64,000 nt of DNA from NCBI RefSeq assembly GCF_055900595.2, contig NZ_CM148325.1. One strand, given 5' to 3'. A program made the position numbers and the translations under genes. Of the stretch, positions 1 through 4,861 are shown piece by piece (the stretch's first letter is position 1; the number at the start of each line of letters is the position of its first letter). Under the pieces are notes generated by a model. The model was not told the DNA's origin. It was given only the letters and a program-made list of their open reading frames with translations, and searched no databases.

Positions 1-29
1 GCGACTCACACTGCTTCTGGCAGCCTGGT

Positions 30-602
30 TTAGTCATTATGACTGGCATGGATTAACGTCAACCCCGGATGATGCCACAAACTGGCTGGCGTGACGGTTT
101 TACGCTCCCACGGAATAGAACCTAAGAACCAGAATTTCCAGAAAGTGAGTTTTGCATTTGGATTGCTGTTTAGCAGTTCTCCAAACGTCTCTATTTCACC
201 CACCGGAATACATAACGCCTCTTTATAAATATCAAAAACGAATTTTGAACAGAACTGGCGGGAAGATTCGTATTTAAAACCGGTGTGGTAGAACTTATGC
301 AACCGGGCAGGGACCTTTTCGACAAGAGCAAGTTTCTGCTCTGCGGTTAAACCTCCTGCCAGGCGGCGAACACCGTAGCGTTGCTCGGTCGACCGTTCAA
401 TAAATCGTGACAAAGTTGTGATTGTGGAGAGCGGAACTCGACTCTCCGCAACCAGGTAATCATCACCGTCATGTCCGATGATTATCCCCACATGGTTGCT
501 CCAGCATTTCGAGGCTGCAGAGATTTGCCCAAACAGGCGAGCACCGATGCAGGTAAAAACAATATCACCGGTTTCATATTTAGCTGGGTAATTTATTTTC
601 AC
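30..602 (-). CDS. yebB: YebB-like protein (conserved core gene divergent from ruvA); apparent GTG start at 600-602
   Basis: 190-aa ORF; position divergent from ruvA matches core synteny; protein recalled as YebB-like from memory, not verified. Confidence 0.65.
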
Positions 603-695
603 TATATCAATCCATTATTTATATATAAAACAGCATCTATCTTTCGTGATGGTAAAGCATTAGCATTGTATTGTAATAATGACAAGGAATGTTTT

Positions 696-1520
696 ATGCG
701 GTTATTTATTAATGTGATAATGATAGTTTCGATCAGTCAATGCGTGAATGTATTTGCTCAAGATAATGTCATTCGCTATCCCTGGCGATATGGACGTATT
801 TCTTTAAATGAGAATAATGAGTTTGTGCCTCAAATTATTCATATGCGTGATGATATCTACGGCGTGGGTGAAGTTGGTGCAAGCCTTAACGATGCGAGAA
901 TGGCGCAAAGTGGTGTCACCGTGAGGCTTAGCGTTATACAGCAGGGGCAGGTGGTGAATGCTTTACTGGATTTCTACAATAGCAATAATCAACCTGCTTA
1001 TATATTTGAAGGCGGTTTATTGTCCTGCAATAAAGCCTTTGACATCACAACAAACAACATTGTCCTTGATGGGATGTGTGGAATTTATGATGGGGTCGAT
1101 GGCTGGCAAGTTATTCCTGCGGGTGAGCATTATAAAGAATCGTTTTCACTCACTCAGGCTTTTGAATTCTTGCCGGGAAAACATCATTATAAAATTAATG
1201 CCGGAGGTTTTATCATCAGAGTCGGGGATGATATTTTTGCAAGAGAAGATGCCGAAAGCATTCTTTTTGATTTGATTAACTGGCGATATGGCTATGTGCT
1301 AAAAAGTTATGAAAGGGTGTCAAAGGGGGATTTGATGGCAGGATATTATGCTCTGTATGAATACTCAGGCGCTGACATAATTGATGAGTATGATATTTAC
1401 TCAAACCAGGTGTCGATTGATCTTAATGGTGACGAGTTAGCACATACGGAGTCCTATCAGTGGCGAATTGATAGCGGAATGATCCCGGAAAAATTCAGCG
1501 TTCAGGGACTCGCTGAATGA
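696..1520 (+). CDS. hypothetical secreted protein, 274 aa, with predicted Sec signal peptide (MRLFINVIMIVSISQCVNVFA / QDNV)
   Basis: ATG at 696 preceded by AAGGA (684-688); N-terminus has n/h/c signal-peptide architecture with V at -3 and A at -1; the track ORF 471-1520 is trimmed because 471-602 overlaps yebB. Confidence 0.55.
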   Translation: MRLFINVIMIVSISQCVNVFAQDNVIRYPWRYGRISLNENNEFVPQIIHMRDDIYGVGEVGASLNDARMAQSGVTVRLSVIQQGQVVNALLDFYNSNNQPAYIFEGGLLSCNKAFDITTNNIVLDGMCGIYDGVDGWQVIPAGEHYKESFSLTQAFEFLPGKHHYKINAGGFIIRVGDDIFAREDAESILFDLINWRYGYVLKSYERVSKGDLMAGYYALYEYSGADIIDEYDIYSNQVSIDLNGDELAHTESYQWRIDSGMIPEKFSVQGLAE

Positions 1521-1557
1521 ATCGTCCTCTACCTGCTTGCCAGATACAGAGGCGCGG

Positions 1558-2127
1558 ATGAATTTATCAAGCGTATTCAATCAGCTTTTAATCTCATTAG
1601 CTCTTGCCGGGACGTTGATATCAAGCAGCTATCTCATGGAAGCTCACTACCCGCGTTTCAGGAAGCCAATTGCGTTCTTTTACTTCTTCTTAGCAATTTA
1701 TACCAGTTATGCTGCCGTTCTGGAGTATGAGTACCACCGCACTAGCTTGACTACGCTCGCAAAAGTTTCTTCGGTTCGTTATACCAGTAATTTTGAGCGT
1801 AGCGCCTCGCACTCCTGCAATTTACTGCGGGGAGGAAGGATTGATTGCACGGGGCTGTATGCCTATGACCTGACCTGGCAGATTGACGGTAAGACCTGGA
1901 ATTTGCATGTTGAGGACAAGCGTATAAAACCAGGATTCACCATGTGCGTGAAGGTTGTAAAAGATCGCCCCGCCATCGGGAAATCCTGTGAAAACGCGTT
2001 TTTCAATGTCAGCCCTTTGCCGATTCTGATAGCTATATGGGCAATCAGCGCATTTATATTTGCGGTCTTACTCCTTCACAGACTAAAAAAATGCCGCAAA
2101 TGGAAGCACGCCAGCAAGGGGCGTTGA
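1558..2127 (+). CDS. hypothetical membrane protein, 189 aa, about three hydrophobic segments and a Cys-containing loop of about 90 aa
   Basis: ATG at 1558 with AGAGG 5 nt upstream (alternative TTG at 1537); hydrophobic stretches LLISLALAGTLISS, IAFFYFFLAIYTSYAAVL, LPILIAIWAISAFIFAVLLL; 37 nt downstream of ORF1, same strand. Confidence 0.5.
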   Translation: MNLSSVFNQLLISLALAGTLISSSYLMEAHYPRFRKPIAFFYFFLAIYTSYAAVLEYEYHRTSLTTLAKVSSVRYTSNFERSASHSCNLLRGGRIDCTGLYAYDLTWQIDGKTWNLHVEDKRIKPGFTMCVKVVKDRPAIGKSCENAFFNVSPLPILIAIWAISAFIFAVLLLHRLKKCRKWKHASKGR

Positions 2128-2229
2128 AAAATTGGGCATTAGAAGTGTGATGTAAGGGGGATTCATACAGAATTTCTGATGCTGTGAGCAAAAGGATTAT
2201 CATTTCTGAAATGATTTAATATCATCCCT

Positions 2230-2249
2230 CGCTGGATATCTATCCAGCA
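2230..2249. promoter_or_regulatory. LexA (SOS) box of the ruvAB promoter, CTGGATATCTATCCAG
   Basis: CTG-N10-CAG palindrome at 2232-2247, 50 nt upstream of ruvA start. Confidence 0.8.
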
Positions 2250-2298
2250 TTTTTTTATCATACAGCATTATCTTTGATTCATTACGCAGGAGCGTCAT

Positions 2299-2910
2299 GT
2301 GATAGGCAGACTCAGAGGCATCATCATTGAAAAACAACCCCCACTGGTATTAATTGAAGTGGGCGGCGTAGGCTATGAAGTGCATATGCCGATGACCTGT
2401 TTTTATGAACTCCCTGAAGCGGGTCAGGAAGCGATCGTTTTCACCCACTTTGTGGTGCGTGAAGACGCGCAACTGCTGTACGGTTTTAACAATAAACAAG
2501 AGCGCACGTTGTTCAAAGAGTTGATCAAAACCAACGGCGTTGGGCCTAAACTGGCATTGGCAATCCTCTCCGGAATGTCAGCGCAGCAGTTCGTTAATGC
2601 CGTTGAGCGTGAAGAAGTGGGGGCGCTGGTGAAACTGCCGGGTATTGGCAAAAAAACCGCCGAACGCTTGATTGTCGAAATGAAAGACCGATTTAAAGGT
2701 TTACATGGCGATCTCTTTACGCCAGCTGCCGACCTGGTACTCACGTCACCTGCCAGCCCGGCGACCGATGATGCCGAACAGGAAGCGGTTGCCGCGCTGG
2801 TGGCGCTGGGCTATAAACCACAAGAAGCAAGCCGCATGGTGAGCAAAATCGCTCGCCCTGACGCCAGCAGTGAAACATTAATTCGCGAAGCCCTGCGCGC
2901 CGCGTTATGA
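2299..2910 (+). CDS. ruvA: Holliday junction branch migration complex subunit RuvA (GTG start)
   Basis: 203-aa [31 protein letters not shown]... recognised as RuvA. Confidence 0.97.
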
Positions 2911-2915
2911 GGTAA

Positions 2916-3929
<1,014 letters not shown>

Positions 3930-3970
3930 GTTGAATAAGGTATTCAAGCCGCTTCCGACATTGGCGATAA

Positions 3971-4059
3971 GCCTGATGCGACGCTGTTCGCGTCTTATCA
4001 GGCCTACCAGAAGTAGCGAACCGTAGGTCGGATAAGGCGCTCGCGCCGCATCCGACAAA
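3971..4059. repeat. pair of REP (repetitive extragenic palindromic) elements
   Basis: GCCTGATGCGACGCTG...CTTATCAGGCCTAC and GTAGGTCGGATAAGGCGCTCGCGCCGCATCCGACAA palindromic units between convergent ruvB and znuB. Confidence 0.75.
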
Positions 4060-4075
4060 TGTGTTCAGCGACAGA

Positions 4076-4861
4076 TTAGCTGGCCTGCTTTTTCATCATA
4101 CTGATAATAAATAACAGTGCCGCACATAGCACTACCGACGGACCCGCCGGCGTATCGTAAAATGCGGAAAAGGTTAAACCGCCAGTTACTGCCACCATTC
4201 CCACCAAAACAGCGACACCGGCCATCTGTTCCGGCGTGCGGGCAAAGCGACGCGCTGTAGCTGCAGGAATAATCAGCAGCGAAGTAATAATCAACGCGCC
4301 GACAAATTTCATCGCTACACCAATCGTCAATGCTGTCACCAGCATCAACAACAATTTCACGCGCTGTAATTTCACACCATCAACAAACGCCAGATCCGGG
4401 CTAATCGTCATTGACAGCAAATTGCGCCATTGCCAGAACAGAATCGCCACCACGATGACCACGCCAATCGCAATAGAGATGAGATCTTCTGGCGTCACTG
4501 CCAGCAAATCACCGAACAGGTAAGCCATCAAATCAACACGAATGTTAGACATCAGACTAACGACCACCAGGCCCAGCGACAGGGCACTGTGCGCCATAAT
4601 CCCTAATAACGTGTCGATCGCCAGCTGTGGGCGCTTCTCCAGCCATACCAGACCGCCCGCCAGCAGCAGCGTAACCGCAATCACCGCATAGAATGGATTA
4701 ACGTCCAGCAACAAACCAAACGCGACGCCAAGTAACGAGGCATGAGCCAGTGTATCACCGAAATAAGACATACGACGCCAGACCACAAACGAACCCAGCG
4801 GACCCGCGGCACAGGCGAGCATGATCCCGGCTAACCAACCAGGAAATAATAATTCAATCAT
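4076..4861 (-). CDS. znuB: zinc ABC transporter permease ZnuB
   Basis: 261-aa polytopic membrane ORF; synteny with znuC and znuA. Confidence 0.95.

Follow-up and report, generated by a model that had tools for sequence, protein, structure and literature searches.

A candidate orphan homolog of type VI secretion M35-effector immunity proteins in a variable slot between yebB and ruvA of Escherichia

We examined a 64,000-nucleotide (nt) stretch of DNA, hereafter the window (NCBI RefSeq assembly GCF_055900595.2, contig NZ_CM148325.1), in which two open reading frames (ORFs), ORF1 (positions 696-1520) and ORF2 (1558-2127), lie between yebB and ruvA, where an initial annotation made from the sequence had placed them. 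Sequence comparisons revealed that ORF1 is a homolog of a protein that relieves killing of Escherichia coli by an M35-type metallopeptidase effector of a type VI secretion system (T6SS). Given the analyses presented below we propose, with slightly more confidence than doubt, that ORF1 is an orphan homolog of T6SS M35-effector immunity proteins with a defensive role, and that ORF2 is an independent, truncated membrane protein. Loci of other genomes are cited by L numbers, with coordinates where these are needed.

Close relatives of ORF1 form six 90%-identity clusters among 5.8 billion, and two of 100,044 species representatives carry the gene, Escherichia sp. E1V33 (91% identity) and Pseudocitrobacter vendiensis (71%). 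A profile of this ORF1 clade retrieved 41 further relatives from 1.84 billion representative proteins (E values from 7.7e-17 to 4e-4), most of them 270-315 amino acids (aa) long, and the N-terminus is hydrophobic in all 12 of the remote relatives that were read. We examined six genomic contexts of remote relatives, in E. coli, Buttiauxella, Citrobacter farmeri, two further contigs and E. coli PAR. Without exception, the relative directly follows a gene for a 238-287-aa protein that overlaps the end of vgrG or of genes for VgrG C-terminal fragments. Genes for PAAR, TssA, TssF-like (as judged from the N-terminus) or ImcF-related proteins are found nearby, and some of the loci carry tandem pairs. 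The upstream proteins share the motif HELSH followed by GTxD, as in HExxH M35-like (aspzincin-type) metallopeptidases, and their profile matches the M35 aspzincins peptidyl-Lys metalloendopeptidase (1g12, E 5.5e-4) and AsaP1. We also considered, and rejected, the possibility that this effector is kin of the YebB papain-like enzyme, as it is an HExxH metallopeptidase. Several of the vgrG islands contain a second M35-effector and immunity pair (L015 1108-2471, L007 5289-6925 and L012 10447-11478), and several of these second copies are truncated or give partial matches, as would be expected if effector-immunity modules had displaced one another in succession.

One of these loci has been studied experimentally. 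In E. coli PAR, genes for VgrG (AKO63_2953) and a DUF2345 protein (2954) are followed by those for the effector M35-PAR (2955) and its immunity protein (2956); M35-PAR kills E. coli, co-expression of 2956 relieves the killing, and the authors equate M35-PAR with the M35 domain of Pseudomonas aeruginosa VgrG2b (PMC10673891). Using gene order and RefSeq locus-tag spacing, rather than an accession given in that paper, we mapped M35-PAR to L015 5465-6253 and AKO63_2956 to L015 6338-7264 (WP_001556809.1). The effectors beside the ORF1 relatives align to M35-PAR with an hhalign E value of 6e-52. The alignment of the ORF1 family matches the PAR immunity protein with an hhalign probability of 100% (E 2e-57, 286 columns), and ORF1 alone matches it by BLASTP with E 6e-15 and 25% identity over 248 residues. 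Together, these three comparisons identify ORF1 as a homolog of an experimentally supported immunity protein, and, at the level of sequence, we regard its homology to the M35-PAR-type immunity family as secure. The initial annotation had described the locus as a candidate undescribed module. This is accurate in so far as no database names the family, and must be amended in that one member has published evidence of T6SS immunity (PMC10673891).

ORF1 resembles AKO63_2956 in its similar length, signal-type N-terminus, first cysteine pair and the motifs LPG.H.Y.I and NQV.I..(D/N)G. It differs in being about 30 aa shorter, in having no second cysteine pair and in falling on a separate branch. In a neighbor-joining tree, the midpoint root falls on the branch of the ORF1 clade, so that nesting within the effector-linked members is not shown. 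Furthermore, AKO63_2956 directly follows an effector gene and vgrG in a T6SS cluster, whereas ORF1 has neither nearby. We detected no toxin domain in the 64-kb window, and no M35 or vgrG homolog either there or at any of the yebB-ruvA loci, and we thus consider ORF1 an orphan. In this it is like orphan T6SS immunity genes, as it is an immunity-type gene that occurs without an effector, in a variable chromosomal slot and in a minority of strains. The orphan immunity arrays that have been described are usually carried by mobile elements or lie beside vgrG or T6SS loci. ORF1, by contrast, stands by itself at a fixed place between a pair of core genes, accompanied by neither an integrase nor repeats.

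The pairs of M35-like effectors and ORF1 relatives follow the same logic as the Tpe/Tpi pairs, namely the VgrG2b C-terminus and PA0261 of P. aeruginosa and Tpe1-Tpi1 of Acinetobacter baylyi, in which a VgrG-delivered zinc metallopeptidase acts in the periplasm and is neutralized by an envelope-exposed, disulfide-dependent binder (PMC6899460). For VgrG2b/PA0261 and Tpe1/Tpi1, the immunity protein is DsbA-dependent, has to be exported and binds the metallopeptidase domain, and PA0261-type immunity genes are small ORFs that encode lipoproteins in Enterobacteriaceae (PMC6899460). ORF1 encodes 274 aa with a signal peptidase I (SPase I)-type site and thereby differs from the published description of the PA0261-type genes. 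A search of the PDB with the effector profile retrieved no VgrG2b chain at E<=1.

The sequence of ORF1 is that of an exported protein under selective constraint. Hydrophobic residues 3-21 are followed by VFA and then QD, an SPase-I-type site, and we infer that the protein is Sec-exported and periplasmic. Two cysteines, C111 and C128, are invariant within the ORF1 clade. The ratio of nonsynonymous to synonymous divergence (dN/dS) is 0.14-0.30 from Escherichia through a 47%-identical ortholog, and ORF1 evolves under purifying selection. In related E. coli, the RefSeq annotation makes ORF1 a 349-aa protein (L001 3471-4520; L023 2322-3371) that begins at an upstream ATG overlapping the opposite-strand yebB. 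We prefer the start at 696 because orthologs of three other lineages all open at the Met of the signal peptide, and the longer annotation is probably wrong.

The AlphaFold2 model of ORF1 is of medium confidence, with a predicted local distance difference test score (pLDDT) of 75.8. By two methods, its best structural matches are AsaP1 (PDB 2x3a/b/c) and the intracellular proteinase inhibitor of Bacillus subtilis (3isy), at a sequence identity of 10-13%. A sequence search of the PDB with the ORF1 family profile gave a chance-level match and no sequence-level match to AsaP1 or 3isy. AsaP1 is an M35 aspzincin that was solved together with its propeptide, and it is the same type of protease as the effectors of the ORF1 relatives. 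The catalytic domain of M35 enzymes is mainly helical, whereas residues 23-176 of ORF1 are nearly all beta in the model, suggesting that the AsaP1 match, for which the aligned AsaP1 residues are not reported, falls on the propeptide.

The slot between yebB and the LexA (SOS) box of ruvA varies among Enterobacteriaceae and, in this genome, is occupied by two unrelated accessory genes. Based on these analyses, we propose that ORF1 is exported to the periplasm via its Sec signal peptide, where, as its most probable function, it would bind and block an M35-like effector injected by a competing enterobacterium, and so would spare a cell that makes no such toxin. Because the predicted beta-sandwich resembles the AsaP1 chain and the Bacillus proteinase inhibitor, we suggest that inhibition may occur by covering of the HExxH active-site cleft, much as a propeptide would. 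We find a protective function of ORF1 plausible, and somewhat easier to accept than to dismiss.

The features of the locus are as follows.

yebB, 30-602, minus strand: gene for a YebB-family permuted papain-like enzyme (NCBIfam NF008547, E 7e-111).
Spacer between yebB and ORF1, 603-695: 93 nt with 25.8% GC between divergent starts, kept in the insert-bearing E. coli and in E1V33.
Segment without a counterpart in K-12, 617-2221: delimited by blastn comparison with the locus in K-12.
ORF1, 696-1520, plus strand: 274 aa, with residues 1-21 (nt 696-758) as a predicted Sec-type signal peptide.
ORF2, 1558-2127, plus strand: 189 aa, with three hydrophobic helices.
LexA (SOS) box of ruvA, 2232-2247, plus strand: CTGGATATCTATCCAG, a CTG-N10-CAG match.
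ruvA, 2299-2910, plus strand: conserved right flank, with 100% aa identity to K-12 RuvA, placed from the RefSeq annotation of homologous loci.

A gap of 37 nt separates ORF1 from ORF2, and each is preceded 6-7 nt upstream of its start by a Shine-Dalgarno sequence, AAGGA for ORF1 (7 nt before the ATG) and GAGG for ORF2. The spacer at 603-695 presumably harbors the promoters of both yebB and ORF1; a promoter-like site for yebB was found at 629-601, and no promoter for ORF1 was identified. Downstream, 171 nt lie between ORF2 and ruvA, which is followed by ruvB. These 171 nt hold the element at 2232-2247, which we take to be the ruvA SOS box on the basis of what is established for the ruvAB promoter of K-12. 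From 2222 onward the window is again homologous to K-12, E1V33 and Pseudocitrobacter, which places the box barely within the right conserved flank, and it marks the right edge of the variable slot. The one other CTG-N10-CAG sequence nearby, at 1353-1368 (CTGTATGAATACTCAG), is located within ORF1, 190 nt upstream of the ORF2 start. As a second LexA box for ORF1 or ORF2 we treat it as a chance match in a variable coding stretch. The SOS-box palindrome and seven T residues (2231-2258) score as an intrinsic-terminator-like hairpin on the plus strand, which could end the ORF2 transcript. Just past ruvB, at 3929-4085, there are two sub-threshold matches to the Rfam family naRNA4, a REP-type repeat.

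In K-12 (DH1), the starts of yebB and ruvA are 274 nt apart, and the 21-codon yobI is the sole gene in the gap. Alignment of the window to the K-12 locus by blastn gave 80.0% identity for 46-616 and 95.0% for 2222-4198 and left 617-2221 unmatched. Opposite the latter segment K-12 has 183 nt of its own, including yobI, so we consider the segment a replacement and not a pure insertion. The AT-rich insertion that had been suggested at 603-2230 is real and rare, with its extent now set at 617-2221 and its nature that of a replacement of the 183 nt in K-12. Nor is the divergence confined to the gap between yebB and ruvA: the segment has no K-12 match, and yebB itself is also divergent, with 80% nt and 86% aa identity to K-12 yebB and a synonymous divergence (dS) of 1.23, versus 100% aa identity and a dS of 0.16 for ruvA. 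The window yebB is 99.5% identical to that of insert-bearing E. coli. From these comparisons, the divergent block runs on into yebB, with a divergent yebB allele that travels with the accessory segment.

The low GC content reported earlier was confirmed. It is 25.8% at 603-695, 40.8% in ORF1, 46.3% in ORF2 and 42.0% over 603-2230. The window as a whole has 50.1% and ruvAB about 53%, and the low GC is concentrated in the intergenic spacer and ORF1. The expectation of rare accessory DNA was also borne out, as the segment has no counterpart in K-12 or in 99.6% of complete E. coli genomes. Of 5,426 complete E. coli genomes, 19 carry a 1.5-kb core of the segment (95.8-97.6% identity), single-copy, chromosomal and at the same locus in all; in the remaining genomes the match is restricted to window positions 2222-2298. 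Because the core genes of the window are 96.3-96.7% identical to those of typical E. coli and 98.8% identical to those of RMDEC465 (one of the 19 carriers), the genome represents a somewhat divergent Escherichia lineage. E. fergusonii, to which a protein name had pointed, was rejected as the source on these same identities. We found no flanking direct or inverted repeats and no tRNA-type signatures around the segment, no integrase or transposase ORFs within window positions 1-4500, and no Rfam family match in the segment. In a plasmid collection neither ORF was found, save for one remote match to the ORF1 family, at 28% identity, on a 385-kb non-mobilisable E. coli replicon (NZ_CP141085.1 287383-287943).

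Comparison across genomes reveals at least five states of the slot between yebB and the SOS box: yobI; ORF1 with a short ORF2; ORF1 with a long ORF2; ORF1 with a gene for a 228-aa protein; and ORF1 alone. ORF1 occurs without ORF2 in L005, L006, L024, L025 and L026. Those from Pseudocitrobacter (L006 and L025) have no second gene, and in E1V33-type genomes ORF1 is followed by the 228-aa protein, a multi-transmembrane (TM) protein unrelated to ORF2 (L005 6854-7540; L024 5854-6540). The C-terminal part of this protein is Cys-rich; it matches no family in Pfam or NCBIfam, and complete E. coli genomes contain no counterpart of it. The ORF1 stop (1521) and position 2222 are the exact junctions. Some insert-bearing genomes also have a gene of the PstS family (PBP_like_2, ~500 aa) between ruvC and yebB (L001 1444-2952; L003 5753-7246), which is absent from K-12, E1V33 and the E. 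coli loci L022 and L023; the window opens downstream of its position.

Between the window and E1V33, yebB and ORF1 together are 93.7% identical at the nt level, versus 89.8% for ruvAB, with a dS of 0.21 and 0.20 versus 0.38. Between the window and Pseudocitrobacter, the dS of ORF1 is 0.60, versus approximately 1.3-1.4 for yebB and ruvA, all dS values being crude Nei-Gojobori estimates on AT-rich genes. From this pattern, we suggest that cassettes may have been swapped between lineages via recombination in the flanking genes, and not via a mobile element.

ORF2 is predicted to have two N-terminal TM helices, a ~90-aa beta domain with four invariant cysteines and a C-terminal TM helix (AlphaFold2 pLDDT 79.5), and these features mark it as an inner-membrane protein. 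The four-Cys domain likely faces the periplasm, because the flanking loop and tail are positively charged. Thus, the earlier description of ORF1 as secreted and ORF2 as membrane-bound agrees with their sequence features. So does the view that neither can be assigned to a family: scans of Pfam, NCBIfam, PADLOC (at E<=1) and PHROGs found none for ORF1 or ORF2, and the ORF2 model also gave no fold match. The ORF2 family comprises 17 clusters and is found in Enterobacteriaceae only (Escherichia, Superficieibacter and further contigs). In all contexts examined, the gene lies directly upstream of ruvA on the same strand. The usual form of 220-256 aa has a conserved C-terminal domain of ~60 aa (LYRIYN...VRSRKGRRK), probably cytoplasmic, that the window ORF2 and other short forms (189-194 aa) are without; the TM segments and four cysteines are kept. 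In Superficieibacter and other contigs (L016-L021), ruvA is directly preceded by an ORF2 homolog with no ORF1 at the locus, and yebB is missing, reduced to a fragment or interrupted by a stop. For example, Superficieibacter sp. HKU1 has a yebB with an internal stop (L021 4031-4591) and another Superficieibacter genome has a yebB fragment (L016 4758-4976), and in both the adjoining ORF2 homolog is intact. The C-terminus of ORF2 varies among strains (181, 189 or 194 aa). Compared with another E. coli copy, which stops earlier, the dN/dS of ORF2 is 0.54, a value based on few substitutions. Since the Escherichia copy has lost the ~60-aa C-terminal domain, the window ORF2 may be decaying.

Several observations weigh against a defensive role of ORF1. 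Its identity to the effector-linked members is 20-28% only, and the ORF1 clade sits apart on a long branch and is missing the second of the two cysteine pairs conserved in the wider family, which has four cysteines. Immunity proteins are usually specific, and a library-wide profile search found no effector whose cognate immunity protein closely resembles ORF1. The predicted fold is a common Ig-like beta-sandwich, in the medium-confidence model described above. Among the 19 carriers, a frameshift splits ORF1 in at least one (E. coli MFDS1022581, L022 2322-3370), and probably also in a second, MFDS1019527 (H74), which has the same three-gene annotation. The former genome has an IS621 copy after ruvB. 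Finally, every close relative examined (>=47% identity, including one in a metagenome-assembled genome) sits beside yebB, in the yebB-ruvA interval, a placement that a gene tied to the locus, and possibly re-purposed, would explain as well as a mobile defense gene would.

Such re-purposing of an immunity fold, by which the ORF1 clade might inhibit a periplasmic metalloprotease of endogenous or host origin, or work together with the YebB papain-like enzyme, seems to us unlikely, although it accounts for several of these observations. The adjacency to yebB holds across four gene arrangements and at least three genera, yebB and ORF1 seem to move together, as the E1V33 divergence values suggest, and both the long separate branch with its lost cysteine pair and the failure of the profile search to find a near-cognate effector would be consistent with a new role. 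However, ORF1 is predicted to be exported, whereas YebB, whose N-terminus is not hydrophobic, presumably stays in the cytoplasm. Also, more than 99% of E. coli have yebB without ORF1, and the adjacency could simply reflect the position of the slot.

Alternatively, the segment might be a decaying remnant of an arrangement that was once present in enterobacteria and has since disappeared from most Escherichia, with neither gene functional now. The truncation of ORF2, its dN/dS and the earlier stop in the other E. coli copy point in this direction, as do the frameshifted ORF1 of L022, the rarity of the segment (19 of 5,426 genomes) and the yebB pseudogene or fragment at some Superficieibacter loci. 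We nevertheless consider general decay quite unlikely, given that ORF1 is intact in the window and has a low dN/dS even to a 47%-identical ortholog, and that the synonymous divergence of the block, lower than that of the flanks between lineages, argues for recent exchange and not slow decay. We are similarly doubtful of a much broader interpretation of the slot, that it is a cross-genus site of interbacterial defense in which exchangeable orphan-immunity cassettes (ORF1, ORF2 and the 228-aa protein of E1V33) would act against envelope-targeting T6SS effectors and spread by recombination in flanking genes, with ORF1 as a trans-acting mimic of a propeptide.

The initial annotation had suggested that ORF1 and ORF2 form one module, either a toxin/immunity pair or an envelope-acting phage-defense system, and this we consider very improbable: the two genes point the same way across a 37-nt gap, a Shine-Dalgarno sequence precedes each of them, both are present in Escherichia and in one distant metagenome-assembled genome (L003) and both encode Cys-containing domains that are probably extracytoplasmic, but they are distributed independently of each other (some loci have only ORF1 or pair it with another gene, and others have only ORF2), the ORF1 relatives are immunity proteins and not toxins, neither gene matches PADLOC or PHROGs, and the window ORF2 is truncated, with a C-terminus that varies among strains. 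A two-gene module does not fit the occurrence of each gene without the other, a toxin among the two does not fit the lack of any Pfam, NCBIfam or PDB toxin match to either ORF, and phage defense found no PADLOC model to support it. What endures of the suggestion is that toxin immunity appears to be concerned, not through a pair but through ORF1, whose relatives are the immunity partners of M35-like effectors.

Returning to ORF1 as an orphan immunity homolog, an immunity protein known from a single experiment gains a sequence family of 41 relatives, for which Pfam and NCBIfam have no model and which has a predicted propeptide- or inhibitor-like fold. The structural likeness may hint at the inhibitory mechanism of the immunity proteins of M35 effectors. 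The apparent two-gene island resolves into two independent cassettes in a variable slot, and the supposedly core gene yebB is part of the divergent haplotype. If ORF1 does protect its host, a small minority of E. coli and their relatives would resist an M35-type T6SS toxin that they do not encode, which would affect the winners of contact-dependent competition in the gut.

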